In this document: piece by piece, positions 3,001-26,796 of the stretch | Position numbering within the stretch: the first letter of the stretch is position 1 | Layout of the letters: every line of letters starts with the position of its first letter | NCBI GenBank assembly: GCA_025677605.1 | Contig: GCA_025677605.1_4110.1 | Source of the DNA: a phage | Reading direction: 5' to 3' (one strand) | Length of the DNA: 64,000 bases | Program-made: the position numbers and the translations under genes | The notes under the pieces: model-generated | Told to the model about the DNA's origin: nothing | The model's database searches: none | Seen by the model: the letters and a program-made list of their open reading frames with translations, nothing else

Positions 3001-6000
3001 TACTGAAGAATCAAATAAACGCATGGCACTTATTCGTTTAAGTATCAGTTCTTATGAACATGCTGTTATTTTTGATGATCAGACTATTTTCGGTGATTAT
3101 ATCTATGAACCAACCTATGGTGCAGTTCAAGAATTGATTAAATTGTATGGATATATCACTGGTTCATGGTCTGGACGTTTACAAGCTCCTGGATTTATCA
3201 TCCTAGAAGCTGGGACATTACCATCATTTGAAACTTTGGTGTCTAATTTCCAACATTATTATGATAATGAAACCCCAGTTAGTGATGTTCAATTAAATGA
3301 ACTTTCAAACCACTTAATTGGCTATCAGTCTCGTGATTACTTACAACGTATGATCACTAATGAGCCTGGTCGAATTGATTTCTATAAAGGTTTTATTCAT
3401 GATAAAGGCACTAACCAAGTACTAGAAAAAGTATTACGTGTATCTAAATCATATAATACTGATGAGTATAAAGCATTACAAGAATGGGCATTCCGTGTTG
3501 GTTCTTATGGTAACATTGATGGTGTTAAAAATCTTCAATTTAAACTAATTAATAATGAGTTTAAACAACAACCACAAATGATTACGTTCGACCGTTATTC
3601 CGATAAGGTTGAATCTGAGAATGAAATTGTATATTATGGTGAAATTGGTGAAGATTCACGCTGGATTAGTCGTCCAAAAGGTAAATTCTCATTCCCTATG
3701 CGTAATGGGAGAAGTGAGAATATCCAATTACCTAATATTGGACCAGTAACCCTAGATGAAATTGATTATACCACATTAAATTACGAAACTGCAAATCAAG
3801 ACCGCATTAGTTATATGAATAATTCTGGTAAAATCCCAACATCTGTTTGGATGTTCCAAGATATCAATAACGAATGGAATGTGTATGATTTAGTAGATAC
3901 TGGTATTACAATGGTTTCTATTACACCAATTGAAAGTGAAGATCCATATGCTGAGCAATATTGTAAAGTACTATTGTCTGATGATATCCCACTCAATGAT
4001 GGTGATTATTATTATTTTGTTGATGAAACAAACTTTATGCCTGATGCCCTACGTGATGAATGCCAATACTACACTTCTGGACTAGATCCAAAAGTTATGG
4101 TAGTGCCATTTGACACTTCCATTACTATTGACTTTTCAACAGTAGAATCAGCACCACGTTTGTATCGTTATGTTAGTAGATTTAGTACTCAACAAGAACG
4201 CGATGAATATATTGCTAAAAAATATAGTTACAGTGCACCTGAAAGCACTTTGTTTGACCGTCCTACTACGTATGATGAAAGAACAAACATTACTGCATTG
4301 TATTTGAATGTGTTTGACCCAATTAACGGTGTTATTCCTGGGGTTGCAATGCAAGATGTTGATTTCATCTCTCCAGTGGACCCAGCACAGTATAGCAGTA
4401 ACGGTGAACTATTACAAGCATGGGGTGCTGAAAAGGTAGGTAAAGTGTGGTGGAACACTAGCACTGCATTCTATCTGGATTATACCCGTCCAATCTTTGA
4501 TGAGGATGGTAACGTTGATGTAAAAGCAACTAATGAATATAAGCGTTATAATTGGGGTAAATTATTACCACACAGTGTTATTGATGTTCTAGAATGGGTT
4601 AGTTCACCAGTAGAACCATACAACTGGGAAAAATATTGTGCAGAACAAGCCAATAAAAATAAAAACAATACTATGTATCTCCCAAGTGGGATTGCAATGG
4701 ATGAGAACTACAGTTCATCTATGGAATATGATCCAATCACTGATACATATGTAGTTCGTTATTATTTCTGGGTTCGTAATACCATTTATGTTCCACCAAT
4801 GACTACTCGTAGTAAGTCTTGTACTGATATTGCACGTATTATTCAAGATCCAACACAATTGAATGTTCCTTGGTTTGCACCTATTAATGAAAATAGTTTC
4901 ATTCTAAGTAATATGCAATTTGAAGTTAATGATGATACAAGCATTTTGACAATTTCATATAGAAATGACAATATCGAAGTACTGAAGCATGATCAATATC
5001 AACTTTGTAAAGAAGGTGATAGTTATGACTTTAACCCAGATATTTGGAATTCACTATGGAACTCACTAATTGGTCAAGAAACTACTTCAACTGGTGTTGT
5101 AAATGAAATAATTTATCCTAAAGTTGAAACTGGTTTAGGTTCTAATAAAACTTGGTTCCAGAATGTCATTGAAGCTCGTCGTGCGTTTGTTGAAAGTGCA
5201 AATAACTTTTACCGTTCACAGAACATCACAACTAACAGTGTTGTTATGAATGATGTGTTTAATGTGAAAACATTAAAAATGAACCCAAATGATATTACAT
5301 TCCGTGTTCTATCATTTAACAATGAATTGGTAATTGCACCAGAAGATAACCGCTTTAAAGAGAATGATGCAGTATTTGTAAGTTCCATCGGAACTCTACC
5401 AGCACCATTATCTTCTAGTTCAGTATATTTTGTTCACATTGATCCAAATGGATACATTCAATTGATGAACAGCCCAAGTACAGTTGGTAGTACTGTTACA
5501 ATCACTCTAGAAAATAGAGGTGAAGGTCAACACAAGATGATTAAACAAGCTGACTTCATAGAATCACTTGGTACATCTTTGGATATGACCCAGTACTGGA
5601 ATCTGGCTGATTGGTACGATACTGGATACGATAGCAACACTGAATATACACAAGAAGTTAGTTTAGATGACGCAAACACTAAAAATTACCAAATTGGTGA
5701 TATTATCCGTGTAACTGATAGTGATGGTGTTTGGACATTATACATCAAGACTGCATCTCGTAATAATATATACTGGAAAGCTATTGGACGTGAGAATAGT
5801 ACAGTTGAATTGAATTCAATGTTATATTCTGGGTACAATGTTTACAATGATGATGGTTCTTTGAATTCTCATGAGGTTAACGTTCGTAATGCGTTAGCGT
5901 TGTTGAAAAATTCATTCAACTTATATCAAAGTAATATTGTTTTTGATATGGTTAAGTACGTACACACTGAACAAAGTGTTGTTGACTGGGTATTCAAAAC

Positions 6001-8800
6001 CTCATATATCTATATTGTAGGTTTAGAACAATCTCTCGTACAAAACTACTCAAATGACAACTTGATTAATCAAATTGTTGAGTACTTCGAAGAAGTTAAA
6101 CCATACAGAACCAAAATCCGTTCTCAAATAGAACAGAAAACTTCTGATGATGATTTGATTAATGGTATCAGTAATGACCTTGACCCAGATGGCTATATTT
6201 TAGTTGATGGTGTGTGGGTTAAGACTGAAAAAGACATTTGGGATTTAGAATATGCACAATTTAATGACGTAACCCAACGTTGGGAAAAGATTGGTTCACT
6301 ACCAAGTGACTTTATCACACCTAACAGACGATTCCAAGAAATCGACGTTATTATGCATTATGATAATATTCAATGTGACCCGTATGATAGTAATTATACA
6401 ATTGATGAGTTGAAATCAACCAATAGTAAGTATCAATCTAATGCTTCGGATATAGGAAATGATTATGAGTTACAGAGATATGTTTATACATTCCCTGAAT
6501 ATGATAATAATACCTTAATTTCACAGATTGGTATTGAAATGACTACCAAATATTCAGATTTGGATATTAGTAATGGTGTCATTAAAGGAATTGATGCATG
6601 GTATAAAGCCCATTCAACTGATATTGCAATGACTGACCAATTTACTGCTGATTTGGAGCAGGTAACTGCTGATACAAACAACAGTAACATTTTAGAAGAC
6701 GTTAAGAAATATATTCAATACAATACATTGGCAACTCGTGTGAAAATGTTTAAGAATATATCTGATGACATGGTTTCTAATGAGATTGGTTGTCCATTTA
6801 AGGGTACGAACTATAATGATAATCCTAATACTCGCCTACCTTTTGGGTTCAGTGCAAGTAGTGATTACAACTATGGTTATTTTGAGATTAGTATTGAACT
6901 ATATGAAAAATATGTCGATATGATCAAGAAAAATCACCCTGAGTTTACTAATGAAGACCAAGTTCGTAATATACTAGAGATAGAATATGGTGTTTATTGC
7001 TACAAGTATGATACCACATTAAATGACCGTTATTATTCTGATACCGTTCATGTGTTATCTGCAATGCGACAAACATTTAATAAGAATATTCTAGATCATT
7101 ATTATGTTGCTAGAGAAATCTTAAGTAATCGTGCAGTTGATAAGTATGCTTTTGTTATGATGCCAAGGAAATATGTGTATGTTGTGAATGCGGCAGGTGA
7201 ATATCTACCGATTCCTGAAAGTTACAGCATATCTGATTTCATGGAAGACTTATTCATAACAACCGGAGAATCAGTTGTATTGGCTGAAATTGATTTAAAT
7301 GATTTACCACAAGACCAGAATAATCCAATGTATTCTGCATATGTTGAAGTACTGGAAAGTATCAATACTGCAAAATATTTCAATGATATGAATGCATTCG
7401 ATAACTTGGCATTGGAATCACAAACCAAATCCATTAAATGGGAAGTTAAAGATAGTGAGATTGATCCTTATATCATCGACATTTCTGAACTAAACCCATC
7501 AGGAAGAACAATGGCACAATTACGTTTCACTGTTGATGGTTACGGTTTCGATGAAGTTGCTCAAGAGCAATTAAAAGACACAAGTAGATTCCAGATTGAG
7601 GGTATGATCGTACAAAACCCTTACAATATGTCAGAAGCAGTTGTAAGTATTCCATCATATGATATTGTCATTGAGAATATGGGTAAAGATGTGTTCAAAG
7701 AATCTGAAAAATACTTCTTCCCAATTTCAGAAATTAAAACAATTACTGAAATCAAAGTTCACGATGAAGGTTTGAAAGATGGTGATAAGGTTATGATTTT
7801 CACGCCAGATGGTGAAGATTATGTACGATTCCAAGACGGTAACTGGGTAACTATATTAAGTGCTAGTAAAATCCAATCCTCTAAAAAACCAAAACTATAC
7901 ACAGTACGTGTATTGGGTAATGGTAACGTAGAGTTGGTTGATAGTAATGGTGTAGTGTTAATGTTTGATAGTATAACTAAGCGTGAAAGTAATGAGCGTT
8001 TTTATACATTATCAATGAACTTAGTTAGAATCCGCACTTTCCAAGACCCTGAGTTTGATGACAATGGACTTAAACTATATGAAAATAATCGTCATTACAG
8101 TATACATGCATTGAACTATGAAGTATTCTATGACGAAACATTATATGGTGGTAAATTCAATGATGGTATCACACCTGATGAAATTGATTTGTGGTTAGTT
8201 TCCAATGAGATTTTTGAAGTTGATGGTATTACAATTGATAATGGTTACAATCAGCCAATCTCTGGTAAAGGTGTCCTGGGTGAACTAGTACGAGCTAAAA
8301 TGACTGATGGTATTGAAATCACTGTATTTGAATACGATGTTGATGTTATTCAACCAGTACTAAGTTATGATCGCGTGTGGCAGTATGCACAACCTGTGGT
8401 CAATAACACGTTCATCAAAGAAGTAGGATGTAGTGTAATTAACATTACAACCGTTGAAGATGAGGCAATCACTTATGTTGCTAAACCTCGTTCAATAAGC
8501 CCATATATCATTACTGATTCAGTACTGTCAGGTGCTGCGGCACAGAATGATGATATTATTGTGGTTGGATATGAGAAGGTTCAGGTAAGAAACACTGACC
8601 GTCTATTACGTGGTGTCATGTATAGTGCGGAACATAATTTTACTAAAGGAACGTCTTATAGCTTTAATGGATTGAACTTGGGGAGCATTGATAAGTTTAC
8701 TCAATATCAAAACTTCTATCCACCAATTCCATTAGATACATTCAGAAATGGATTGTCAATTACTGGAACTGATATCGAAAATCTATTGAATATTCAATAA
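41..8800 (+). CDS. Giant protein (2919 aa), function unknown; possibly virion-associated
   Basis: Single uninterrupted 8.76-kb ORF; overlapping antisense ORFs are short. No catalytic motif recognised by eye. Followed by a bidirectional terminator. Confidence 0.85.
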   Translation: MYENFLQSVRYTYDHLGVETEISGLYYYNVVGKDNELHLKTDWVRSKEDSKQFVKQTPQIEHTDMYRVFNTVFEMENFKNPLEGMYAYVTEVDRTYQYYKEERQTYMDWHVISGEGIQSERFNRTFELAQKIIDGKSTEIIEIQVDGVDVTDYTRHVYNNKVQSITLGEDVALKDESVIQIRTYSSTEVPNKELGAYEIPINLQNNPYNDNILYINQSNFTLHFKDIIQKNITSGSVDDFNDYEDRLSKGLVDNSVGTKIIQNEASMLPLMAHSANEDIDLFESVLFMQSEYFRFVNKFNTQMIRLYNENPANFLANNASNIVDEILTIINMGHDNTFPFYYDNVASTSGFIRAFVPPTPQFLGILKAHVPEKATFLNAGSKQSCYNISHTGAITKAYRVINGVDKMDDVIYELENRIFNSIDVIFKDEDYQPKLDASDLFPTPYYRDTEYNDEEKKNLLLRGYINFIATNGISNSSHDYDPNNWMTWNYTGTHYMVNGQQTQIAARGSWRAIYTDQFGTYRPATHPWEMFGFSQRPVWWNQEYEPTAVQVGERDGDVVYVYEALVINEQGNMVPSGLWDVGNEKGDSSTGTILFGARKGQYDKYKRFGTQPFKITKTGKQTASGVDICVIEYIAPEVLGLVYGSLNHRAEPWTYGDMGDMEFTYMNTAMFAYDELLMLFKAKPAQFTNYFWDTRNNTLKTVSGNEPQFLYGDTRLRLNFNSDTIVHGENSTRVIGYQMIVSDYLMYQNKNITTKYGEIVRSSHINVGHKLGGFTKADQLTFTSEATGLISQENQSIGLVRSNNIRNEQMSAIKITWTGSAYQIDGYDLVSATFNYKLPVKNGHKVSLKVDNRNVVHYNEWKNDASIPYGTLMNTFQEVYTFICGYGEYLKQHGWIFEEVDESGIQQDWNTIAKDFLIWSQQQLSTGEFISCTPSAINAKFGTDFGSVQSIAQNSGGVWSLLDDSNQGIRQFEIETSRIGNIFTVRTTEESNKRMALIRLSISSYEHAVIFDDQTIFGDYIYEPTYGAVQELIKLYGYITGSWSGRLQAPGFIILEAGTLPSFETLVSNFQHYYDNETPVSDVQLNELSNHLIGYQSRDYLQRMITNEPGRIDFYKGFIHDKGTNQVLEKVLRVSKSYNTDEYKALQEWAFRVGSYGNIDGVKNLQFKLINNEFKQQPQMITFDRYSDKVESENEIVYYGEIGEDSRWISRPKGKFSFPMRNGRSENIQLPNIGPVTLDEIDYTTLNYETANQDRISYMNNSGKIPTSVWMFQDINNEWNVYDLVDTGITMVSITPIESEDPYAEQYCKVLLSDDIPLNDGDYYYFVDETNFMPDALRDECQYYTSGLDPKVMVVPFDTSITIDFSTVESAPRLYRYVSRFSTQQERDEYIAKKYSYSAPESTLFDRPTTYDERTNITALYLNVFDPINGVIPGVAMQDVDFISPVDPAQYSSNGELLQAWGAEKVGKVWWNTSTAFYLDYTRPIFDEDGNVDVKATNEYKRYNWGKLLPHSVIDVLEWVSSPVEPYNWEKYCAEQANKNKNNTMYLPSGIAMDENYSSSMEYDPITDTYVVRYYFWVRNTIYVPPMTTRSKSCTDIARIIQDPTQLNVPWFAPINENSFILSNMQFEVNDDTSILTISYRNDNIEVLKHDQYQLCKEGDSYDFNPDIWNSLWNSLIGQETTSTGVVNEIIYPKVETGLGSNKTWFQNVIEARRAFVESANNFYRSQNITTNSVVMNDVFNVKTLKMNPNDITFRVLSFNNELVIAPEDNRFKENDAVFVSSIGTLPAPLSSSSVYFVHIDPNGYIQLMNSPSTVGSTVTITLENRGEGQHKMIKQADFIESLGTSLDMTQYWNLADWYDTGYDSNTEYTQEVSLDDANTKNYQIGDIIRVTDSDGVWTLYIKTASRNNIYWKAIGRENSTVELNSMLYSGYNVYNDDGSLNSHEVNVRNALALLKNSFNLYQSNIVFDMVKYVHTEQSVVDWVFKTSYIYIVGLEQSLVQNYSNDNLINQIVEYFEEVKPYRTKIRSQIEQKTSDDDLINGISNDLDPDGYILVDGVWVKTEKDIWDLEYAQFNDVTQRWEKIGSLPSDFITPNRRFQEIDVIMHYDNIQCDPYDSNYTIDELKSTNSKYQSNASDIGNDYELQRYVYTFPEYDNNTLISQIGIEMTTKYSDLDISNGVIKGIDAWYKAHSTDIAMTDQFTADLEQVTADTNNSNILEDVKKYIQYNTLATRVKMFKNISDDMVSNEIGCPFKGTNYNDNPNTRLPFGFSASSDYNYGYFEISIELYEKYVDMIKKNHPEFTNEDQVRNILEIEYGVYCYKYDTTLNDRYYSDTVHVLSAMRQTFNKNILDHYYVAREILSNRAVDKYAFVMMPRKYVYVVNAAGEYLPIPESYSISDFMEDLFITTGESVVLAEIDLNDLPQDQNNPMYSAYVEVLESINTAKYFNDMNAFDNLALESQTKSIKWEVKDSEIDPYIIDISELNPSGRTMAQLRFTVDGYGFDEVAQEQLKDTSRFQIEGMIVQNPYNMSEAVVSIPSYDIVIENMGKDVFKESEKYFFPISEIKTITEIKVHDEGLKDGDKVMIFTPDGEDYVRFQDGNWVTILSASKIQSSKKPKLYTVRVLGNGNVELVDSNGVVLMFDSITKRESNERFYTLSMNLVRIRTFQDPEFDDNGLKLYENNRHYSIHALNYEVFYDETLYGGKFNDGITPDEIDLWLVSNEIFEVDGITIDNGYNQPISGKGVLGELVRAKMTDGIEITVFEYDVDVIQPVLSYDRVWQYAQPVVNNTFIKEVGCSVINITTVEDEAITYVAKPRSISPYIITDSVLSGAAAQNDDIIVVGYEKVQVRNTDRLLRGVMYSAEHNFTKGTSYSFNGLNLGSIDKFTQYQNFYPPIPLDTFRNGLSITGTDIENLLNIQ

Positions 8801-14572: not shown

Positions 14573-15670
14573 TTACACACCAATAATAGGAATACCAGTT
14601 ATATTAAGCAGTACTGAAGCCTGAAGCTTAACACTTTGACCAGTTCCTAAACCGGAAATTGAACCATCAACACGGAAACCTAAATGTTTATTAGTATTGA
14701 GTGAGTTGATAACCCATGCTTCATAATCAGTCTTCGTCATTCCACCTGGATTTGGAATTGTTGGGTCCACACCATTAACTACCATATTAACATCCCAAGT
14801 TGGTTGTGAACTGGTAATAACATCTTTAATAACTTCCAGACTTGTAATTCTACGTGGATCTGGAATCTCACTACATGGGATAGAACCAGGAACAAAAGCA
14901 CCTTCATTGTCAATATAGAATTGACCTTTAATGATAAATGTCTTGGAGTTGAATGGTAAAGAAACAACTTCACCAGTACTATCCTGTACTTCACGAATCA
15001 TAATCTTCAAATCATAGAAATAGTTACTTCCGAATTGGAAAACACCATTACCATTACTAAATGATGTCCAGTTGTCTGGATCTACCTTAGAACCACCACC
15101 TAAGTTGAAATATGCAAGTGTCTTAGTACTTTCAGTTTGGGTAAATTCAATATATTTTTTACCTAAATCATAGTTTATATCCAATAGTGATGAATATTCT
15201 TTGTTTTCAGGACGAGATGTTTGAATTTCACGCCATTCTTTGTTTTTCATCAAAACACGGAGTGAATCACCGTTATTTGTCAAAACCATACGACCCATAA
15301 CACTACTTTCGCCATCTGGGATGGTGTTGAAAATTGTGATCATTGGGATTGATGCCCAATCTGCTTCAGAAGCAGTATCTATTGGTTGACGAGCGTTATC
15401 TACTAGAGAAATAAGTAGTTCACCTATGTTACCAGTGTTTTTATACCAAATTTGTCCTTTAACACTACCACGTGGTGCAGATGGACCACTAAAATGCTCA
15501 ACTAAGTGTAGAAAGTTTTCGTTCCATGCTTGACCATAACCAACCTTATTACGCCCAACTAAGTTAATAGGAACTGGGTTAGTACCTGGTTGGTTAGGAC
15601 CAAGGATAACGTTGTTTGGAATGGAAGCATAAACGCTTCCATCACTGCGATATATAGTATAATTATTCAT
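14573..15670 (-). CDS. Putative tail fiber/baseplate protein
   Basis: 365-aa ORF in the fiber module; G/N/T-rich N-terminus typical of fiber proteins. Function inferred from context. Confidence 0.7.
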   Translation of the reverse strand: MNNYTIYRSDGSVYASIPNNVILGPNQPGTNPVPINLVGRNKVGYGQAWNENFLHLVEHFSGPSAPRGSVKGQIWYKNTGNIGELLISLVDNARQPIDTASEADWASIPMITIFNTIPDGESSVMGRMVLTNNGDSLRVLMKNKEWREIQTSRPENKEYSSLLDINYDLGKKYIEFTQTESTKTLAYFNLGGGSKVDPDNWTSFSNGNGVFQFGSNYFYDLKIMIREVQDSTGEVVSLPFNSKTFIIKGQFYIDNEGAFVPGSIPCSEIPDPRRITSLEVIKDVITSSQPTWDVNMVVNGVDPTIPNPGGMTKTDYEAWVINSLNTNKHLGFRVDGSISGLGTGQSVKLQASVLLNITGIPIIGV

Positions 15671-15680
15671 TTACCACTCC

Positions 15681-16295
15681 TTACTGTAGTTGTACACGAA
15701 CAGTATATTTTATTTGTAAAACACGGTTCGCACTTTTCTCTACTGGGTGGAAAATAATATGAGATAACGGCATACCATTATCACCATCAGTATATAAACC
15801 CAATTCATCAAACACGTAAGTACCGTCCATGTTAGTACTTGAACTTGTATTCTGGTCTACTGGTTCACCTAGTCCCAAAGTACAAATACAAACGATATCG
15901 GTGTATGCTTGACCTGGAATATGAACAGTTGTGATGTTATTATATTGTGAATCAATGCTACTTGAGATTCGTGGGTTTATTTTCTTCAAATATGTTTGTG
16001 AATATAGACCACCAAATGAAGTTACACGTGGTTTTTTGTATGTTACACGCCCAGTACTCAATACTACAGTACCACCGTTACCAAAACGCATTTCTGATAT
16101 TGAACCAACTGGGATACCAGAACTATCTTGGTTATATGCTAGTGCGTTAGCGATTGCAGTACTCATGTTTTCTGGGTGAATTGCGTTCGATTTATCGAGC
16201 ACAATTTTTTCATTCGCAGGATCAGTAACGTCAGTAATTAGTACATGACCCTTAACGAACAGTTTTGGTTGTTCTGTTTCTAATTTCATTTCCAA
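15681..16295 (-). CDS. Hypothetical structural protein
   Basis: 204-aa ORF tightly packed with neighbours. Confidence 0.7.
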   Translation of the reverse strand: MEMKLETEQPKLFVKGHVLITDVTDPANEKIVLDKSNAIHPENMSTAIANALAYNQDSSGIPVGSISEMRFGNGGTVVLSTGRVTYKKPRVTSFGGLYSQTYLKKINPRISSSIDSQYNNITTVHIPGQAYTDIVCICTLGLGEPVDQNTSSSTNMDGTYVFDELGLYTDGDNGMPLSHIIFHPVEKSANRVLQIKYTVRVQLQ

Positions 16296-16298
16296 TCC

Positions 16299-16796
16299 TT
16301 AAAAGTTTATTAAAATTTCTTCAATTTTTCCAGCCATACTCTTTTGAATATCAGTTGGATTCTGACTAATGTAATTACGGTCGATGCCAACTTTCAAATA
16401 TGTAAAATTACCAGTTAGTGTTTCTGCAAATGTGCCAGTTGTACCATGCTCAAGCATACTATCGCCATTATTTGGGTTGTAAATTCTGGTATCAGTAAAT
16501 TCCAGATAATAATTACATGATTCGGTAAATTTAATCGGGAACCAATCATCATCAGTTGGGTTACTAGCTAATGTTGCTAACACATAAATTCTTCCAATAA
16601 ATTCACGTAATGTGAAGGAAATTGTATGTAGACCAGTTGTACTACCATAGTAGCCACCGCTTGCCATTGGTAATGTCACTTCGTTCCAGTGATAATCGTC
16701 ATTTGATGGATACCAACTATCAGAATCTGGAAAATCCTGAATAGCTCCATCTTTTCCTTTGCGTTTGAAAAGAAAATTCTTTGATCTTAAAGCCAT
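16299..16796 (-). CDS. Hypothetical structural protein
   Basis: 165-aa ORF; ATAAATA-like late-promoter motif upstream on the minus strand. Confidence 0.65.
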   Translation of the reverse strand: MALRSKNFLFKRKGKDGAIQDFPDSDSWYPSNDDYHWNEVTLPMASGGYYGSTTGLHTISFTLREFIGRIYVLATLASNPTDDDWFPIKFTESCNYYLEFTDTRIYNPNNGDSMLEHGTTGTFAETLTGNFTYLKVGIDRNYISQNPTDIQKSMAGKIEEILINF

Positions 16797-16905
16797 TGTT
16801 AAGCCCTTTTGTGTAGTGAACTTTCATTTATTTATTATTGGTCTTCGTTGCTGCATTGAACAGATAAATATTCCTATATGATAACAATTCATAAAGGGAA
16901 TAATT

Positions 16906-18033
16906 ATGACAATTTCATTCAACAATGGGTCTGGCGGTTCATGTAACAATTCTGGTATTAAGAGTTTAGTAATTAACTCTGCTGGTCATTTGATTGTAAC
17001 ATTCGCTGATAATACAATACAAGATTTGGGTCTAGTCGTTGGACATGACGGTACTAATGGTAAAAATTTCTATCCTGATGATGTTGGTATGGAAATACCA
17101 GACGGTACATTTGCAGTTGATAAACCAGAAGGTTGGTGTTATTTAAGTCTAGCAAATGGAACTGCAAAACTATATTTTAAAACAAATGATGCTGGTGTAG
17201 CACCAAGTACTTGGAACACAGTAGAATTTGGTAAAGGTGATACTGGTGCACCAGGTAAATCATTTAAAATTGATTCTTCTGGTCCTGTTTTCCCAACCAC
17301 TGGTCTATTTGACCAATATACTTTCTATAATACTTCCGATGGTAAAGTGTATTTTTATAATCAAAAAGCTGGTTCATGGAGTAATGGTATTGATTTCCGT
17401 GGTGAACAAGGTCCACGTGGTCGTTTCCATATTGACAGTGATGGTCCTGCTTTCCCAAGTATTGATAACTTACCAGAAGATTATTGCTTCTATAACACGA
17501 CTGATGGAAAACTATATTACGTAGATATTAATAAGCAAACCACCCCTCCAACAAAAGAATGGAGTGAAGGTATTGAGTTCCGTGGTAAAGATGGTGAACC
17601 TGGTCCAGAAGGTAAGCAAGGTGATCCGGGTCAGAATGGTAAAGATTCAATTATCGTTGTAAACACGATTGATCATTCATGGACCAACGCAGTATTGGTG
17701 ATCGGTACATGCCCAGCAGGTTATGTAGTAACTAATATTGAAGTTGATATCACCCAAGCTTATATTGACCCTGTAACTGAAATGCACATTCGTGTAGGTG
17801 GGGAAGCACAAGAAGATATCGGTGGTACTATTATTGCACCAGTTGATTATTTTGATATCAACCGTGCACTACGCTTTATCGTTAATGAAACAAACCATGA
17901 ACCGTCAGCAGAAGATGAAATCATTGCTTGTGTTTTTAATGAATCAGTTAATAACAGTAATTATGGTCAAATGAAAGTAATTTGTACTCTAGCATGGCAA
18001 GCACCAATCCAACCAATTGAAAACAACATCTAA
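16906..18033 (+). CDS. Tail fiber protein with short collagen-like Gly-X-Y runs
   Basis: GKGDTGAPGKSF, GEQGPRGRF, GKDGEPGPEGKQGDPGQNGKD triplet runs; GATAAATA motif about 45 nt upstream. Confidence 0.75.
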   Translation: MTISFNNGSGGSCNNSGIKSLVINSAGHLIVTFADNTIQDLGLVVGHDGTNGKNFYPDDVGMEIPDGTFAVDKPEGWCYLSLANGTAKLYFKTNDAGVAPSTWNTVEFGKGDTGAPGKSFKIDSSGPVFPTTGLFDQYTFYNTSDGKVYFYNQKAGSWSNGIDFRGEQGPRGRFHIDSDGPAFPSIDNLPEDYCFYNTTDGKLYYVDINKQTTPPTKEWSEGIEFRGKDGEPGPEGKQGDPGQNGKDSIIVVNTIDHSWTNAVLVIGTCPAGYVVTNIEVDITQAYIDPVTEMHIRVGGEAQEDIGGTIIAPVDYFDINRALRFIVNETNHEPSAEDEIIACVFNESVNNSNYGQMKVICTLAWQAPIQPIENNI

Positions 18034-18046
18034 GGGGGATTGATTA

Positions 18047-20218
18047 ATGGCAGTTTTTTCTAACTTTGAAGGGACAATGAAAACCAAGTTTATACTTGGT
18101 AAAAATGGGGCATTAATTAATTATGCTAACAATTCCCTGTCTATTACAGATAGTTTCGGAAGCATCTTATTGCCCGTACAAGTTGGTGAACCGATTAATG
18201 ATAATTCAGCGATTACTGCAAAGTATCTCGCTGACCACCCAACTGTATTATTTGGGAATGAAATCCCAGATAATAGTCTTGGTAAGGATAATTATACTTA
18301 TTTGCAATTAGACCAAGAAAGTGGTGGTATCCTAGATATTTTCGCTAAGAAGAATGGTGCATGGATAAAATCAATGTATGTTAATACTAAAGTATTATCC
18401 AGTACTAATGGTTCTGATTATATTGGTTTGGTTTCTGGTGGAACACTACAACAAGCTTTGTATTATATAACACCTGAAGAATTTGGTGCTATCGGTGATG
18501 GTATTGCTGATGATACTGACGCAGTTCAAGCTTGTGCTGATTACGCTAAAGCTCATGATATCCAAATACAAGGTAAAGGTGTTTATCGTTTATCCAAAGC
18601 AATATATTTTGAAAATATTGAATGGTATGGTGGAACATTAACTGGCACTGGTAAAACAATGATATCAGCAACCAACTGTAAAATACAAGGGGCAAACATT
18701 GCTCGTAGTTATATTCAGTTTTCTGGTGGTAATGGTAAGTTCTATTTCAACCGCTTTTATGGTACAACATTCACCTGTGCATTCTTTATGCGTGATTTAA
18801 CTTCAGAAGGTATTCTCGACTTTTGTTTCAATGAAATGTACGATGTTAACTTTGGTGTTCTACAGCAAGGTGGTAGTGGTGAAATAGTAAAATATGCTCG
18901 CTATGCATATAACCATATTCACGATATCTATGGTGATGGTATTGAATTAAACGTAGTTTCAAGACACTTCACTGATGGTCTAATCATTGAAGGAAACCAT
19001 ATTGAAAACGTTGATGGTACTAACGCTCCAATCCCACTATCAAACTGGGGTATCGGTATCGGTGTTGCTGGTAAAGGTCCATATGGAGTTGATATTCCAG
19101 ATAGTCAATATGTTAAAAACTTCACTATTGCTCGAAATAGAGTATATAACTGTCGTCAATGTATACACGTTGAAGTCGGTAAGAATTTTAATATAATAGA
19201 TAATGAGACATTTCCATCAACCACAATATCAACTGGAACTGGCTTAACTGCCGCAGGTATCATCACTTATGGATGTCAAGATTTTGTTGTTGACGGATTA
19301 ACTGGTCGCTATTTGGATGATCCAGCAACTGCACCAACAAACAGAATGATTAAATTTACATGGGGTGTTAACCCTGCTGATGCAACACACCAATATGCAT
19401 GGTATGCAGGTCCACCAAAAGATTTTAAAGTTCAAAACGTTTTCATTCCTGAATCTAGTATAGAAATATACACATCCGGTGCAAACGCATGGACTAACGA
19501 AACTGATATGCACAATATAACTTGTGAAAAATTATATTGGCGTGGATTACCATCATCATCAAAATTCAGTAAAATTTATACAAAAAATTTAGATGTAATT
19601 GGTCAATATCAAGATGGTGAAGGTGGTGGCGTTTATACCAGAACTAATTATACATATACCAGTTGGATTGGTAATATAGTTCAAGATGACGCTAATATAT
19701 CAAATTATTCATTCTCACGAATGTATGTTGATAGAATAGATCAATCTGGTAATAACTTCACGGTAACAACTGAAATAGATGGAACTGGTCACCGTGGCCC
19801 AGTACTGATACCAGTCACGGAGCAATATTATCTACCTTATGATGAATTCCCAGGTGGTAGATATTTCCCCAAAGGAACAATTTTACACAAACAATCTGGG
19901 GGTAAATATGTAGTAACAGTAGCTGGTGCATTCGTAGGAAAATATGAACAGCTTAAAGCAGCAGTAGTTGGTGCTAAAACTATTAGAACACATAACACTG
20001 CATGGGGTACAAACCAATATGCTAAAGCAGCAGGTACAAGAATTGTAATTCCTGGTGCTGGTGAAAATGGAACTGATCTCCACACTCATATAACACGAGC
20101 TACATACGTGGTCAACTCGGTATTTTGCATTGATATAGCAGATGAAATAAAAACTGCTTTCCCTGATGGGACTCCATTGTTAGCCGAATCCCCAATTACA
20201 TACATTACACTTCCATAA
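18047..20218 (+). CDS. Tailspike with pectate-lyase-fold polysaccharide depolymerase domain
   Basis: FGAIGDGIADDTDAVQACADYA motif typical of beta-helix depolymerase tailspikes; N-terminal ~60 aa shared with the next gene. Confidence 0.85.
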   Translation: MAVFSNFEGTMKTKFILGKNGALINYANNSLSITDSFGSILLPVQVGEPINDNSAITAKYLADHPTVLFGNEIPDNSLGKDNYTYLQLDQESGGILDIFAKKNGAWIKSMYVNTKVLSSTNGSDYIGLVSGGTLQQALYYITPEEFGAIGDGIADDTDAVQACADYAKAHDIQIQGKGVYRLSKAIYFENIEWYGGTLTGTGKTMISATNCKIQGANIARSYIQFSGGNGKFYFNRFYGTTFTCAFFMRDLTSEGILDFCFNEMYDVNFGVLQQGGSGEIVKYARYAYNHIHDIYGDGIELNVVSRHFTDGLIIEGNHIENVDGTNAPIPLSNWGIGIGVAGKGPYGVDIPDSQYVKNFTIARNRVYNCRQCIHVEVGKNFNIIDNETFPSTTISTGTGLTAAGIITYGCQDFVVDGLTGRYLDDPATAPTNRMIKFTWGVNPADATHQYAWYAGPPKDFKVQNVFIPESSIEIYTSGANAWTNETDMHNITCEKLYWRGLPSSSKFSKIYTKNLDVIGQYQDGEGGGVYTRTNYTYTSWIGNIVQDDANISNYSFSRMYVDRIDQSGNNFTVTTEIDGTGHRGPVLIPVTEQYYLPYDEFPGGRYFPKGTILHKQSGGKYVVTVAGAFVGKYEQLKAAVVGAKTIRTHNTAWGTNQYAKAAGTRIVIPGAGENGTDLHTHITRATYVVNSVFCIDIADEIKTAFPDGTPLLAESPITYITLP

Positions 20219-20235
20219 TAAGGAGATATTTCAAA

Positions 20236-21138
20236 ATGGCAGTTTTTTCTAATTTAGAAGGAACTTTGAAGAAGAAATTTATTCTAGGTAAAAATGGTGC
20301 ACAATTCACAACAAATGGTGATATTGTGCAAATCCAAGATTATTCTGGAACACGACTTCTTCCGGTTTCTGCTGGTGACCCAACCGCAAACACACACCTA
20401 GTAACCTTAGCATATTTTAATGCTCATGGTGGTAGTGGTGCAAGTGGTATTTTGCGTGGTGATATCGCTCCTGCTGATACACTAGGAACTGATGGTGATG
20501 TTTATTTTATGGTTGATGCAACCAACATCGTTCAAATATATATTAAAGACCTTGGGATTTGGAAACCATTTAATGGTGGTGGTCCAGTAACCGATAGTCC
20601 TTATGTAACTTCATTCTCTGTCCCTGTTGCAGCATTTGTTCTTATTCCTGGAACAGTCGATGAATATACATATACCATTCCTGAATCACAACATGACCGT
20701 GGTCGTGACATTTTAGTTCAAATGGAAGATACACCAACAGACGGTAATCCAAATATTCGTAGTGTGGTTAATTCCGAAATTACAGTGTCTGGATTTGGGG
20801 ATATTACAATTAAAATGCTTGGCCTCCCAGATGGTATTACTGAGGTTAAAGTTAATATTATAGGAGCAACCGCTATGACTACCCCATACGGAAAATTGAT
20901 TAACAAAGCAGACTGGATTGCTGCTGCTGATAAATTCACTTACACTGTCACTGCTGATACACATAAACAAAGTCCTGATTCTTTGTACGTGGCAATCTAT
21001 GGTAATGATGTACCTGGTTCAACAGCATCTGCACCGTTTGATTTGGTATTCGTGGATACACAAATTGATACAGATGGTAATGTTACTTTTGTATCTGATG
21101 AACAATTCAGTGGTAAGATTGTTATCGCTGGGAAATAA
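20236..21138 (+). CDS. Second receptor-binding protein sharing the N-terminal adaptor domain
   Basis: N-terminus MAVFSNLEGTLKKKFILGKNGA nearly identical to the start of 18047-20218; C-terminal part unrelated. Confidence 0.75.
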   Translation: MAVFSNLEGTLKKKFILGKNGAQFTTNGDIVQIQDYSGTRLLPVSAGDPTANTHLVTLAYFNAHGGSGASGILRGDIAPADTLGTDGDVYFMVDATNIVQIYIKDLGIWKPFNGGGPVTDSPYVTSFSVPVAAFVLIPGTVDEYTYTIPESQHDRGRDILVQMEDTPTDGNPNIRSVVNSEITVSGFGDITIKMLGLPDGITEVKVNIIGATAMTTPYGKLINKADWIAAADKFTYTVTADTHKQSPDSLYVAIYGNDVPGSTASAPFDLVFVDTQIDTDGNVTFVSDEQFSGKIVIAGK

Positions 21139-21145
21139 GATATAT

Positions 21146-21177
21146 GCCAGGTATGATGTCTTAGTGCCTGGCTTTTT
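21146..21177 (+). terminator. Putative intrinsic terminator
   Basis: GCCAGG...CCTGGC stem with a long loop, then TTTTT. Confidence 0.45.
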
Positions 21178-21252
21178 CATATATACAAATAAATAATTAC
21201 ATATTAACACAGTTAATAAGTATTTTAATTTTACCCAAATGGAGGGAAATGA

Positions 21253-24200
21253 ATGTACTCGATAAAAACAGATCTAGCAGTAACTGGTAATACTAATGTT
21301 GGTAAAGAATTATCAGTTAAAGGTAATGCGGTCTTCGATAAAAACGTAACCATTAAGGGGACCGTTAGTTTCGCTGATGCTACCTTCACTGCAATTACAG
21401 TAGATCAAGCAACAATCAACACAACACTCGATGTTACAGGCAAAGCGTCACTTAAGGGTGGAATGGATGTACTTGGCAATACAGTTATTGGTAATACTAC
21501 TGCTGGTTCCGATACAGCAACTATTAATTCCAATGCTACTTTTAATGGCACTTCTACTTTTGCCAAAGATATTACACAAACATCAGGAAAAGCAATTTTT
21601 CAAGATACCACCACTTCTGCATTAGAAGTTAATGGTACAACAACATTAAATGGTAACCTCACTGCTGCGGCAGCAACCACTGCAAGCTTTGATAAATTAA
21701 CTGCTAATGAAGCAACCATTGCAACTGTATCAGCAACTGATATTACTGCAACTGGTGCAACCGTTGAGAATCTAACTGTAACTGGTAAATTAGATGGTGA
21801 TTTCACATTAGGGGATGTTAATACCGATAATTTAGTTGTTGAAAAACTATCTACATTAAAAGGTGCTGTAACCCTAGAATCAAACATCATTGGTACTAAT
21901 ACTGTAGCAAACCTAAAAGCTGTATCTTTGGGTTCTAATGCAGCGGATTCGACTGCACGCCTAGGCTTTGCATATACTGCTCCTGGTTTACGCCCAACTG
22001 TAATTCTACAAAACGAAGTACAGTCCGAGCTAATGACACCAGCAAATCTAACAGTACTTAAAACTGCTACATTTGGTGATGTATCAGCAGCAACCAATGG
22101 TATTACCGCAAAAGGTTTGAACCTATTTGATTACCTAACACTTTCTGGTAACTCAATACAAGATCCAACCACACCAATTCTACGTGTAACTAAAGGTAAA
22201 ACACAATTAACTGACCTACAAGTTGATGGAACTACTAATATTACTGGTAAAACTACTGTTGGTGATTTGGATATTACTGGAACACTATCAGGTAACTTTG
22301 TACTAAGTGATATTACTGCGGATAATTTAGTTGTTGAAAAACTAACTACACTAAAAGGTGCATTAAACCTAGAATCTAATATTGTTGGTTCAACTGCGAA
22401 TGCTAATTTAAAATCTGTCACTTTAGGTGGAAACGTAGCAGACACGAATGCTAAAGTTAACTTTACATATACTGCTCCTGGTTTACGTCCAACTGTAATT
22501 CTACAAAACGAAGTACAGTCCGAATTAATGACCCCAGCAAATCTAACAGTGCTGAAAACTGCTACATTTGGTGATGTATCTGCATCTACCTACGGTATTA
22601 CAGCAAAAGGTTTGAACCTATTTGATTATTTGAAAATAACTGGTAATGCGGTACAAGATCCAAATACATTAACTCTAGATGTGGATGGTAAGGCTCAATT
22701 CAAAGACGTTAATTTCACTGGTACAGTTACTGGTTTTGTTCCTGACATTTCTGGTCAAGATATTACACCTAAAGATGTAACTGCTTCTGGTAATATTAGT
22801 GGTGTTAATCTAGATGCTTCTGGTACACTAACAGTTGATGGGGATTCCGTTCTAAAAGGCACAACTATAACTGATTTGACTGTTACTGGAACTACAACTG
22901 GTATTACACTAGCTGGTCAAGACATTACTCCTAAAGATGTAACTGCATCTGGTAATGTTAAAGGTGTTGACGTAACTGCATCTGGAAACCTAACAGTTGA
23001 CGGTACTACCACATTGGTTGGTAACACGGTAGTTGATGGTTTATTTGAAGTTGTTGGTCAAACAACCACTGTTAAAGATTTGAACGTTACTGGTACACTA
23101 TCTGGTGCTGCAATTAAAGCAAACGTTGATGGTCTAGACATTCTACCTAATTCTGTAACCACAACTGAAGAAGTTGCAGTGGGGACTAATCTAAGTGTTG
23201 GTGGAAACGCACTCTTTAGTGGCTTGAAAGTTGAAGTTACTGGTAAAGTTACTGGTGTTGGTTCTGATGCATTAGAAACTGGTTCAATTGAATCTGACGG
23301 TACTATCACTGCCCCAAATATCACAGCAACTACTAAAGTGACCGCAGCTTCCGCACAAATTACCGGAACCGGAACTGGTCTAAGTGTAGATCATAATGCA
23401 TCAGTTGGTGGTGATTTAAATGTTACTGGAACTTTAACGGCTGGTGTTATTGACCTAAGTGCGGCTGATGTAACTGTTAAAACACTTGATGTATCTGAAA
23501 GTGCACATGTAGGTGGAAACCTAACTGTTGATGGTACTGTAGATTTAAGTGCAGCAGATGTAAGTGTTAAATCTTTAACTAGTGCTGGTCCTGTGATTAG
23601 TAATGATGCTACTGGAACTAACATTCTACCAAAATTACAAAGTACTGATATTACTACAACTAACAGTACAACTGGTACAGCAACAGTAACTACAGCAAAC
23701 ATTTCTACATTAAATGTTACTGGTGAAAGTACATTGGCTGCTGTTTCTGCTGTTTCTGTAACTACTCCTTCTATTGTTAATACCGATGGTATTAATTTAG
23801 AAAATGATACAGTTGCACATGGTGACCTAACTGTTAAAGGTACATTTACACCTGAAGGTGGATTAGATTTAAGCCCAGTTGATATCAGTTCTAAATCATT
23901 AACAACAACTGAAGGTGCAACCATTGGTGGAAGCTTAACTGTTGATGGTGCAATTAATGCTGCTGCGGCAGATCTAACTGTTAAATCACTAACTTCTTCT
24001 GGTGTTATTACTGTTACTGAAAATACTGAACCAAGTATTCTACCAAAACTAACAAGTACTGAAGCAACCGCTGGTAAATTGAATGTTACTGGTGATGCAA
24101 CAGTCGGTGGTAAAGCGACCGTTTCTGGTGCACTTGAAGTTACTGGTGCTTCAACATTTGGTAACGCAGTAACTGTAAACGTCGGTGGTATTACTGCTAA

Positions 24201-26796
24201 AGGTGGCTTGACTGTTGCTTCTGGAAACTTGAAAGTTGCTGCTGCGGCAGTGGTTGATGGTTCAGTAAGTGCTGGTTCATACACAAGTGCTGGAGATAAA
24301 ATAACACTAGCTAAACCAACAGATGTTACTGGTGATTTGCACGTTGAAGGTGCTTTCACTGCAACTTCCGTTGATTTTAGTACAACTGATTTAACTGTTA
24401 AATCACTACAAGTTGATAATGACGTTACTATCGATGGTAACTTGACTATCACAAATGCTGATTTGGAAACTAACTCATTAGCAAGTACTACAAGTACTAC
24501 TGTTGGTACTGACCTAATTCTAACTACTGGTACAATTACTGGTGCTCCAACAATTTCTGGTGCAACTACACTAAGTTCAACCCTACATACTGTAGGTGCT
24601 GCAACTTTTGATGGTACTGTTGATGTTGGTGGTAAAATTACTTCTAAATCAATCCAAGTAAGTGCTACTGGTGTTGGTGTAGCTGTTGATAATGATGCAA
24701 CTGTTGGTGGTTATTTGACAATTGGTGAAACATTAGGTGTTACTGGACTAAGTACTCTGTCTGGTGGGGTTGATGCAGGTTCTGCATTAATCAAAACTAC
24801 TGGTGAAGTTCAATCAGCAACTCTACAAACTTCTGGTAAAGCAACACTAGCAAGTGTTGATGTTTCAGGTGATGCAGTTGTTACTGGTGACCTAACTGTT
24901 AAAGGTGCATTTACACCTGAAGGTAGCCTAAACTTAGGTTCTGCTGTTCTAAACGTTGAAGGTGTTGATGCAAGTGCTAACTTAACTGCACTCGGTTCTG
25001 TAACTGCTGGTACTACACTAACTGTTACTGGTGTTTCAACTCTAAATGGTGGTACTAACACTACTACTCTTTCAACAAGTGGTAAAGCTACATTAAGTAG
25101 TGCGGAAGTTACTGGTGCTCTAAGTGCTGGTGGTGCTTTGGCTGTTACTGGTACTACAAATCTAACTGGAAAACTAACCGCTGGTGAAGCTGCTCTCAGT
25201 TCACTAACAGTTTCTGGTGATGTTACCATTAATGGAACACTAAACCCTGGAACATTGGATCTATCTACTACTCCAGTTGATGCGAAAAGCTTGAAATCTA
25301 GAGAAACACTAGAAGTTACTGGTCTAAGCACTCTAACTGGTGGTTTGGCTGTTAGTGCAAATACCGCAATCACTGCTGCTGGTGACATTACTGGTACTAC
25401 AATTACCACAACTGGTAAAGGTACATTTGGTAGTGCAGCGGTAACTACTGGTTTGACTGTTGGTGGTGCTTTGGTTGTTAATGGTGCATCCGTGAACATC
25501 TCTGATGCTTCTACTGTGACTATGCCTAAAGCTGATATTTCTGCGAAAGGTATTATCATCGGTCCTAAAGTTAGTTCAAGACCGGAAACTATCCAATTTG
25601 TTGGTGATACTTATATTGGTAGTAACCTATTTGTTGCTGGTAATATTAACGGTTCAGTAGATTTGGCTGGTCAGGATATTTCCCTGAACTCATTAACTTC
25701 TAATACCACAATTCACGCAGTTGAGGATATTACTACTGATGAAGATATGCACGCACGTGCTGCAACATTCGGTGCACAAGGTTCAACAGCTAACAGCCTA
25801 ACTGTTAATGGTAACGCAGTAACTACTGGCGACTTTACTGTTAGTGGTAAGATTATTGGTACACTGGACCAATCTGCAAGTGCAGTCGAAGTTAAATCTC
25901 TAACTTCTACAACCTTTATCGCTGCTGGTACAACCCTAACAGTTGGTTCAACAATCACTGCTGAAGGTTTGAGTACTTTGAAAGGTGGTATTGCAACTAA
26001 TGGTGCTACAATCAACGCTGGTGATGGTGCAATCACTACAACTGGTGATGTGTCTGGTGCAAACGTTAGTGCGTCTGGTGCAGTAACTACTGCAACTATT
26101 ACAACTTCTGGCCTAGCAACTATGGCAAGTGCTAAGATTAACACTACTCTAGCAGTTACTGGTGCAACTACACTATCTGATGTTGTTACTATCGGTAAGA
26201 AACTAACTGTTAGTACTGGTGGTATCGAAATCACTGCGGGTGGCTTCAATGTAGTTGCGGGTGGTGCAGCAATTACTGGTGCTACTAACCTTAAAGGTGC
26301 TGTAACACTAGGTTCTGCGTCTGCTGATGCAATCACAGTTACTGGTACATCTTCATTTGCTGAAAATGCAACATTTGCTAAAGATGTGACTATTGAAGGC
26401 ACACTACATACAGATATTGCTGATTTAGTAACTGAAAGTGTAACTACTAAAAAGTATGCTGTTACACCTGCTGCTAAAGTACAGGCATCTGTTGCTGCTC
26501 CAAGTGAAGGAACATGGTCACCTGATGGTGAGTCTAATGTGTACTATATTACACTAGACCAAGCATCAACTACACTAGGTCCAATTAACGGATTGATTGG
26601 AAGTGGTAAGGCTGGTTCTTACTATATCTACGTACAACAAGATGCAACTGGTGGACGTGAACTTATCACTGATGGTACTTATGCAGTAGTAGGTGGTGAG
26701 ATTAACAAAACACAAAATACAGTTAGTATCATTCAGTTGATTTATGATGGATACAGCCCAGTAGTAGATATGTTTATTGCACAACGTACTGCTTAA
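21253..26796 (+). CDS. Long tail fiber (1847 aa), highly repetitive T/G/A/V-rich
   Basis: Recurrent LTV(D/T)G and TVKSL motifs, internal tandem duplications; GGAGGG RBS. Antisense ORFs here are compositional artefacts. Confidence 0.85.
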   Translation: MYSIKTDLAVTGNTNVGKELSVKGNAVFDKNVTIKGTVSFADATFTAITVDQATINTTLDVTGKASLKGGMDVLGNTVIGNTTAGSDTATINSNATFNGTSTFAKDITQTSGKAIFQDTTTSALEVNGTTTLNGNLTAAAATTASFDKLTANEATIATVSATDITATGATVENLTVTGKLDGDFTLGDVNTDNLVVEKLSTLKGAVTLESNIIGTNTVANLKAVSLGSNAADSTARLGFAYTAPGLRPTVILQNEVQSELMTPANLTVLKTATFGDVSAATNGITAKGLNLFDYLTLSGNSIQDPTTPILRVTKGKTQLTDLQVDGTTNITGKTTVGDLDITGTLSGNFVLSDITADNLVVEKLTTLKGALNLESNIVGSTANANLKSVTLGGNVADTNAKVNFTYTAPGLRPTVILQNEVQSELMTPANLTVLKTATFGDVSASTYGITAKGLNLFDYLKITGNAVQDPNTLTLDVDGKAQFKDVNFTGTVTGFVPDISGQDITPKDVTASGNISGVNLDASGTLTVDGDSVLKGTTITDLTVTGTTTGITLAGQDITPKDVTASGNVKGVDVTASGNLTVDGTTTLVGNTVVDGLFEVVGQTTTVKDLNVTGTLSGAAIKANVDGLDILPNSVTTTEEVAVGTNLSVGGNALFSGLKVEVTGKVTGVGSDALETGSIESDGTITAPNITATTKVTAASAQITGTGTGLSVDHNASVGGDLNVTGTLTAGVIDLSAADVTVKTLDVSESAHVGGNLTVDGTVDLSAADVSVKSLTSAGPVISNDATGTNILPKLQSTDITTTNSTTGTATVTTANISTLNVTGESTLAAVSAVSVTTPSIVNTDGINLENDTVAHGDLTVKGTFTPEGGLDLSPVDISSKSLTTTEGATIGGSLTVDGAINAAAADLTVKSLTSSGVITVTENTEPSILPKLTSTEATAGKLNVTGDATVGGKATVSGALEVTGASTFGNAVTVNVGGITAKGGLTVASGNLKVAAAAVVDGSVSAGSYTSAGDKITLAKPTDVTGDLHVEGAFTATSVDFSTTDLTVKSLQVDNDVTIDGNLTITNADLETNSLASTTSTTVGTDLILTTGTITGAPTISGATTLSSTLHTVGAATFDGTVDVGGKITSKSIQVSATGVGVAVDNDATVGGYLTIGETLGVTGLSTLSGGVDAGSALIKTTGEVQSATLQTSGKATLASVDVSGDAVVTGDLTVKGAFTPEGSLNLGSAVLNVEGVDASANLTALGSVTAGTTLTVTGVSTLNGGTNTTTLSTSGKATLSSAEVTGALSAGGALAVTGTTNLTGKLTAGEAALSSLTVSGDVTINGTLNPGTLDLSTTPVDAKSLKSRETLEVTGLSTLTGGLAVSANTAITAAGDITGTTITTTGKGTFGSAAVTTGLTVGGALVVNGASVNISDASTVTMPKADISAKGIIIGPKVSSRPETIQFVGDTYIGSNLFVAGNINGSVDLAGQDISLNSLTSNTTIHAVEDITTDEDMHARAATFGAQGSTANSLTVNGNAVTTGDFTVSGKIIGTLDQSASAVEVKSLTSTTFIAAGTTLTVGSTITAEGLSTLKGGIATNGATINAGDGAITTTGDVSGANVSASGAVTTATITTSGLATMASAKINTTLAVTGATTLSDVVTIGKKLTVSTGGIEITAGGFNVVAGGAAITGATNLKGAVTLGSASADAITVTGTSSFAENATFAKDVTIEGTLHTDIADLVTESVTTKKYAVTPAAKVQASVAAPSEGTWSPDGESNVYYITLDQASTTLGPINGLIGSGKAGSYYIYVQQDATGGRELITDGTYAVVGGEINKTQNTVSIIQLIYDGYSPVVDMFIAQRTA
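21784..22700 (+). repeat. In-frame tandem duplication (period 495 bp) inside the fiber gene
   Basis: 21979-22133 and 22474-22628 are near-identical, both encoding APGLRPTVILQNEVQSELMTPANLTVLKTATFGDVS; a further 165-bp repeat encodes GQDITPKDVTASGN at about 22753 and 22918. Confidence 0.85.

Follow-up and report, generated by a model that had tools for sequence, protein, structure and literature searches.

A colanidase-type tailspike and a small neighbouring protein of an Asteriusvirus jumbo phage share a putative N-terminal docking module

Introduction

Two neighbouring genes in the tail-fibre cluster of a jumbo phage encode proteins that begin alike and end differently, which raises the question of whether a common N-terminal part attaches both to the virion and what the two distal parts are for. 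The genes lie 17 nt apart on the + strand of a 64,000-nucleotide stretch of phage DNA (GenBank assembly GCA_025677605.1, contig GCA_025677605.1_4110.1), which we refer to as the window; they are called ORF1 (open reading frame 1; 18047-20218) and ORF2 (20236-21138) here. An earlier reading of the sequence alone (the original prediction) took both for receptor-binding proteins (RBPs) with a shared adaptor, one carrying a depolymerase domain of a pectate-lyase type and the other possibly a second receptor specificity. Both reading frames are present exactly as it gave them.

Over the region 16900-21300, identity is 99.7% with Escherichia phage A4 (ON286972, Asteriusvirus, 355 kb) and ∼72-73% with other 121Q/PBECO4-like jumbo coliphages. 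The window belongs to an Asteriusvirus (121Q/PBECO4-like, RaK2-related) jumbo coliphage, and both genes are part of the tail-fibre cluster of this jumbo myophage. In A4 the counterpart of ORF1 is A4_571, a ‘colanic acid-degrading protein’, and that of ORF2 is A4_570, a ‘structural protein’; the genes had thus been deposited and partly annotated before. The A4 pair is flanked by a ‘structural protein’ of 375 amino acids (aa) and a ‘long tail fiber proximal subunit’ of 1847 aa.

Here, we describe the analysis of the pair. ORF1 is likely to be a chimera, in which a module of RaK2-like jumbo phages gives way near residue 105 to a colanidase of the phi92 gp150 type and docks this enzyme to the virion. 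ORF2, the resident carrier of the same module throughout the lineage, continues with two tandem immunoglobulin (Ig)-like domains. The coordinates of all features are collected in Table 1.

Results and discussion

The shared N-terminal module

The first ∼60 residues of the two proteins had been described as near-identical, with the remainder diverging. The homology itself is clear, with 44/111 identities (40%) and E=8e-19 in BLASTP, and the divergence is as described, as detectable similarity ends at about residue 106 of ORF1 and 109 of ORF2. Near-identity did not hold up: 19/22 residues are identical over positions 1-22, 22/40 over the first 40 and 30/60 (50%) over the first 60. Twenty invariant positions are common to ORF1-type and ORF2-type modules, and tblastn and hidden Markov model (HMM) searches found no third carrier of the module among the ORFs of the window.

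The likeness is thus steepest at the very N-terminus. Between the two genes, 82% of the first 66 nt agree, compared with 54% of the first 186 nt, and one could suppose that ongoing gene conversion between adjacent paralogues, rather than functional constraint, has kept the two N-termini alike. The genes are indeed same-strand neighbours, and identity falls from 82% to about 50% beyond the first 66 nt. Eight of the 19 conserved codons in residues 1-22 differ synonymously, however, and the identical 22 residues are conserved in genomes with a single copy as well; the mean pairwise identity of this peptide is 86% among 47 orthologues from several genera. We therefore rejected recent gene conversion as the cause of the near-identical 22 residues on the synonymous differences, which point to selection, and regard ongoing conversion as very improbable indeed.

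The distal part of ORF1

A phmmer alignment of residues 104-722 of ORF1 to crystallized phi92 gp150 (PDB entry 6E0V, chain residues 17-623) has E=6e-216 and 329/605 identities (54%) with no large gaps, and ORF1 matches phrog_6117, ‘colanic acid degradation’, with E=3e-229. Tailspikes of the gp150 type are understood to be right-handed β-helix homotrimers, and the body of ORF1 presumably has the same form, given the near-full-length homology to a solved chain. The homology to a solved enzyme likewise supports the depolymerase domain that was proposed from the sequence. The body is 52% identical to the PHB05 ‘colanidase tailspike’ from residue ∼195 of the latter onwards, and also gives a partial match to WcaM, a colanic acid protein of the host.

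phi92 gp150 has been reported to hydrolyse the Glc-Fuc β-1,4 linkage of colanic acid (PMC13450770). For PBECO4 gp547, an orthologue of ORF1, the BF17 paper (PMC10059673) states that it likely has a part in degrading a cell-wall polysaccharide, citing Kim et al. (2015).

The original prediction rested on a pectate-lyase-type motif, GAIGDGIADDTD, which translation and alignment place at residues 147-158 of ORF1 (nt 18485-18520). The motif is present and the likeness stands at the level of the fold; membership of the pectate-lyase family and its chemistry do not, as ORF1 has no Pfam pectate-lyase match at E<=0.1 and gp150 reportedly acts as a hydrolase. The PHB05 homologue falls below the threshold for Pect-lyase_RHGA_epim (16.4 bits against a cut-off of 27). 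ORF1 is alike over its whole catalytic body to phi92 gp150 (PDB entries 6E0V and 6E0W) and to the Justusliebigvirus ‘colanidase tailspike’; it shares the GDGxxDDT helix start with this type and, by homology, the C-terminal Ig-like domain. The gp150 type differs from ORF1 at the other end, where it has an unrelated N-terminal region of ∼190 residues in place of the 105-residue jumbo-phage module.

The colanidase body is found in 252 phage records, which comprise jumbo Asteriusvirus phages, phi92-like/rV5-like myophages of ∼148 kb and podophages of ∼42 kb, and its N-terminus is specific to each group: the unrelated ∼190 aa are those of PHB05 (phi92-like), and in the podophage altidsur a T7 tail-fibre N-domain takes their place. 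By this comparison the colanidase body is mobile, and in ORF1 its junction with the module lies near residue 105.

PBECO4 gp547 and 121Q gp573 (‘colanic acid-degrading protein’) occupy the same gene position as ORF1 and have the same architecture of module plus colanidase, although the allele in the window is divergent from theirs (the bodies are 63% and the modules 57% identical). Compared with other Asteriusvirus phages, the A4-type colanidase protein is only 63% identical and its adaptor only 57%, while the adaptor of the adjacent ORF2 is 79% identical; the spike gene thus diverges faster than its neighbour.

Two variants of the gene were noted. In Escherichia phage vB_EcoM_JNE01 (OR670491; locus L004) the annotation gives the colanidase gene as two overlapping coding sequences (CDSs), at 4501-4926 and 4877-6643. 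A frameshift close to residue 120 leaves a module-only product of 141 aa and, apart from it, a catalytic body of 588 aa; either the assembly is in error or enzyme and adaptor have been uncoupled naturally. P0073, a 201-aa protein in an NCBI TPA entry labelled Escherichia coli, seems to be an internal-deletion derivative of a 121Q-type colanidase, with the N-terminal ∼150 residues joined, as judged by eye, straight to about the last 50.

Distribution and portability of the module

The module was found by tblastn in 72 phage records, and all of those examined are RaK2-like jumbo phages or their partial records. Asteriusvirus has two copies and other genera have one, which is the ORF2 orthologue and always lies directly 3′ of the 375-aa tail protein (for example in GAP32). 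ORF1-type modules share 57-68% identity among themselves, compared with 29-47% with ORF2-type modules, whichever the genus; as they form a separate group, the duplication of the module must be old. The gene in RaK2 and K64-1 sits at the same locus as ORF2, but differs in encoding only 115 aa, which is the module alone without a distal domain, and it stops right after a WKP motif. This RaK2 protein (ORF061w, gp061) has been detected in virions by tandem mass spectrometry (MS/MS), with two peptides and 26% coverage.

An exhaustive profile search with the module against 1.84 billion representatives divided it into two parts. Positions 65-112 correspond to a single unit of a ∼45-residue repeat, of which many long fibre or collagen-like proteins have 5-15. 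Positions 1-68 occur at N-termini only, ahead of differing bodies, and the carriers with β-helix or BNR bodies come from uncultured phages: P0099 has a β-helix and a Peptidase_S74 chaperone, P0105 has a Beta_helix domain, and P0123, P0125, P0165 and P0211 have BNR propellers, with CBM_5_12 in P0165 and P0211. In P0201 the body is a thin fibre. P0099 and P0105 are encoded 6 kb apart on one 120-kb contig (L007), the NrdD of which is 89% identical to those of Serratia phage BF and the Erwinia pEa_SNUABM phages. The contig comes from an Eneladusvirus-like jumbo phage, which independently provides a second example of two enzymes carried on one adaptor by a single jumbo phage.

The portability of positions 1-68, including this pair, is the strongest support for the adaptor idea and is comparative in kind. 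The modular adaptor that had been suggested for the shared N-terminus agrees with three observations across genomes: the module stands alone in the RaK2 virion, it is found on other bodies elsewhere and the colanidase body is found with other N-termini. The ∼105-residue module thus probably attaches both proteins to the virion. A broader reading, in which the first ∼65-110 residues are a portable virion-docking domain that recruits any trimeric distal domain to one site and module-only proteins such as RaK2 gp061 are placeholders, is tentative, and we would put its chances at somewhat below even. The distal domains seen to be used in this way would be a colanidase, other β-helix depolymerases, glycosidase-like BNR-propeller proteins and fibres of Ig-like domains.

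P0201 lies on a 19.5 kb JGI metagenome contig of a distant relative (L011; 3924-4379 and 4393-5292), where the protein encoded directly 5′ of it resembles, by eye only, the 165-aa protein of the window (16299-16796, minus strand). As in the window, T4 gp15-like and ClpA-like genes are close by. This arrangement may hint that the 165-aa protein and the adaptor are functionally linked.

Predicted structure of the module

Structure prediction had been proposed as a check, and AlphaFold2 (AF2) models were made of ORF2 (predicted local distance difference test, pLDDT, 80) and of residues 1-112 of ORF1 (pLDDT 71). The two models have one module topology, with the secondary-structure elements in identical order. 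The extreme N-terminus is predicted to be disordered in the monomer (pLDDT <50; residues 1-11 in the model of the ORF1 module and 1-6 in that of ORF2); it is followed by a three-strand meander (residues 14-35), a short helix at about residue 60 and a well predicted four-strand unit (residues ∼67-110). No solved structure was found to include the module. The best fold match of its C-terminal half is the trimerization domain of collagen XV/XVIII (multiplexin), and the closest known systems also include the N-proximal small β domains of Acinetobacter podophage tailspikes and the crAss001 head-fibre trimer gp21. The ∼45-residue β unit may be a trimerization unit. At rank 3 of the Foldseek matches is a 375-aa viral protein. 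The 375-aa protein of the locus was tried as a further carrier of the module or β unit and rejected at the sequence level, with no HMM match at E<=10 and an hhalign probability of 0.5% against the ORF2 family.

Proposed docking to the virion

If the module is a docking element, it would anchor each trimer to an acceptor site of the baseplate or of the fibre complex, and this would incorporate the colanidase into the virion. The virion-borne enzyme would then strip the slime layer of colanic acid, so that the phage could reach its receptor on the cell surface, while ORF2 would sit on an equivalent site as a short fibre of Ig-like domains with a structural or weakly adhesive function. We infer the docking, the acceptor site, the trimerization through the β unit and the role of ORF2. 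As candidate partners we propose, from synteny and conservation, the 375-aa protein together with proteins of 165, 204 and 365 aa (16299-16796, 15681-16295 and 14573-15670, minus strand). The 375-aa protein is encoded directly 5′ of the module gene at the examined loci of RaK2, GAP32, 121Q, JNE01 and phAPEC6, and is 68% identical to RaK2 gp062; mass spectrometry (MS) of phAPEC6 virions found its orthologue there, gp253, to be abundant.

It could instead be argued that the shared N-terminus is only a nucleus for trimerization or folding left over from an old tandem duplication, and that ORF1 is a soluble depolymerase which, once released at lysis, degrades colanic acid around neighbouring cells. 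The collagen-like fold match of the C-terminal half would suit such a role, and this half is a common repeat within fibres, not a terminal anchor. Virion proteomics of phAPEC6 points the same way at first sight, as it lists gp253 and gp256 but not gp254 and gp255, the ORF1 and ORF2 orthologues. The phAPEC6 sequence (MK817115; locus L006) contains both as intact ORFs (713 aa at 5001-7142 and 298 aa at 7159-8055), yet its GenBank record has no CDS for either, with the locus tags going from gp253 to gp256; as the orthologues are missing from the record, their absence from the MS list is ambiguous. A literature search found no virion proteomics that mentions the 121Q colanidase. Against a soluble enzyme, the module-only protein of RaK2 is present in virions, and the highest conservation is in the 22-residue N-terminal peptide, which is predicted to be disordered and is thus typical of a partner-binding element rather than a folding core. 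In other phages the colanidase body always comes with a lineage-specific N-terminal attachment domain (such as the T7 tail-fibre N-domain), and the two genes are located within a tail-fibre gene cluster. We judge a shared N-terminus without a role in attachment, and with it release of a soluble enzyme, to be improbable and favour a module that docks the colanidase to the virion.

Such an arrangement would resemble the branched or anchored RBP systems of the Klebsiella phages KP32/KP34, of K1E/K1-5/SP6, G7C and CBA120 (Latka et al., 2019; PMC6872550) and of phiKp24 (PMC9700779), in which several tail proteins of a genome have a common N-terminal element and differing distal domains. ORF1 and ORF2 are likewise at least two tail proteins of one genome with a conserved N-terminal element and divergent distal parts. 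Truncated carriers in the branched systems have been described as possible placeholder docking sites (PMC6872550, PMC9700779). The T4gp10-like branching domain that is the docking site in systems of the CBA120/G7C/KP32 type was tested for and was not found.

The distal part of ORF2

The distal part of ORF2 is predicted to consist of two Ig-like β-sandwich domains, which match each other with an hhalign probability of 95% (E=3.7e-8; control 0.2%). ORF2 has no sequence match in Pfam, NCBIfam or the PDB and no recognized enzymatic or receptor-binding domain, and no fold similarity was found to the solved baseplate fibre connectors of the T4 gp9/gp10/gp11/gp12 type. Of its 71 homologues, 70 align over the full length; residues 113-300 have a mean pairwise identity of 48%, and the last ten residues have a consensus-residue frequency of 91%, with the C-terminal FSGKxVISGK almost invariant. 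Phages of nine or more host genera, including Escherichia, Cronobacter, Erwinia, Yersinia and Salmonella, have full-length orthologues (41-83% identity). The position of the gene 3′ of the 375-aa tail protein is conserved in 121Q, GAP32 and RaK2.

These data bear on whether ORF2 is a true second RBP, the Ig-like domains of which bind a surface receptor and give the phage two specificities. The nearest folds are the Ig-like domains of bacterial adhesins, the first domain varies most within the family (mean identity 42%, with a consensus-residue frequency of only 0.23 over residues 171-180) and relatives differ in how many distal domains they have: two, one (P0076, P0085 and P0086) or none. These observations speak for a second RBP. 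The protein is nevertheless conserved from end to end across many host genera, with its nearly invariant C-terminus, and thus does not behave as a host-specific tip; it lacks a recognized receptor-binding or enzymatic domain, and RaK2 and K64-1 manage without the entire distal part. The second specificity that had been suggested for ORF2 is therefore not borne out by its domains or its conservation, and we think it unlikely. ORF2 is more likely to be a structural or weakly adhesive short fibre.

Features of the locus and neighbouring genes

Table 1. Positions and supporting evidence for the two genes, their parts and their neighbours
Feature	Position	Strand	Evidence
Upstream 375-aa ‘tail protein’, candidate docking partner	16906..18033	+	phrog_13565
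ORF1, 723 aa, colanic-acid depolymerase (colanidase) tailspike	18047..20218	+	A4_571; phrog_6117 E=3e-229
ORF1 adaptor module, aa 1-106	18047..18364	+	BLASTP against ORF2; HMM match positions 1-112, E=1.6e-39
Near-invariant N-terminal peptide, aa 1-22, MAVFSNFEGTMKTKFILGKNGA, candidate docking element	18047..18112	+	19/22 identical to ORF2
Portable N-sub-module, aa 1-66: peptide, three-strand β-meander and ‘ExP....A.T..Y’ helix	18047..18244	+	
Four-strand β unit of ∼45 aa, aa 67-108, single copy of a repeat widespread in tail fibres; possible trimerization unit	18245..18370	+	
Colanidase body, aa 104-722, including GAIGDGIADDTD	18356..20212	+	Homologous to phi92 gp150 (PDB 6E0V)
ORF2, 300 aa, small conserved virion protein of RaK2-like jumbo phages	20236..21138	+	A4_570; phrog_10468 E=7e-78
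ORF2 adaptor module, aa 1-112	20236..20571	+	57% identical to RaK2 gp061
ORF2 Ig-like β-sandwich domain 1, aa ∼121-210, most variable part of the family	20596..20865	+	
ORF2 Ig-like β-sandwich domain 2, aa ∼213-300, internal duplicate of domain 1	20872..21135	+	pLDDT 83-96
Downstream 1847-aa tail-fibre protein	21253..26796	+	phrog_4549; A4 ‘long tail fiber proximal subunit’

A promoter scan of 16700-21400 gave none above the expectation from shuffled sequence. By eye, the 375-aa tail protein has three alike units of ∼50 residues with the pattern ‘..FP...L..Y.FYNT.DGKLY......W..G..FRG’, with short G-X-Y runs of collagen type on either side. This collagen-like, repetitive appearance agrees with a phrog_3904 match and with weak matches to Pfam Collagen and WW. 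The pattern resembles the β unit of the adaptor, although the profile similarity is not significant.

The 1847-aa fibre has a tandem duplication of ∼165 aa near its N-terminus (aa 182-346 and 347-490, 70% identical), which is present in two copies in 121Q and in at least two, weaker, copies in GAP32. These repeats were considered as docking sites for ORF1 and ORF2 and were rejected, as GAP32 has at least two units and one module protein and RaK2 has the module without the fibre. Antisense ORFs of up to 353 aa within the fibre gene seem to be by-products of its repetitive coding, which is rich in Thr, Val, Ala and Gly.

Conclusions

The enzyme is known, as is the plan of an adaptor with a distal domain (PMC6872550, PMC9700779), and little here is surprising because the architecture follows the established rule of an anchor plus a distal domain. 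The new element is modest: a jumbo-phage-specific adaptor family not described before, for which we found no Pfam model, no solved structure and no description in a literature search. The analysis fixes the fusion point at about residue 105 and bounds a compact adaptor, with a near-invariant peptide of 22 residues, that RaK2-like jumbo phages reuse for different enzymes. An N-terminus shared within a fibre cluster does not make every protein that bears it an RBP, and ORF2 calls for that caution. The adaptor is a concrete target for interpreting electron cryo-microscopy (cryo-EM) maps of the poorly resolved tail-fibre complexes of jumbo phages and a handle for swapping depolymerases onto them; if it is indeed a portable docking domain, it would be a ready-made means of engineering jumbo-phage host range.

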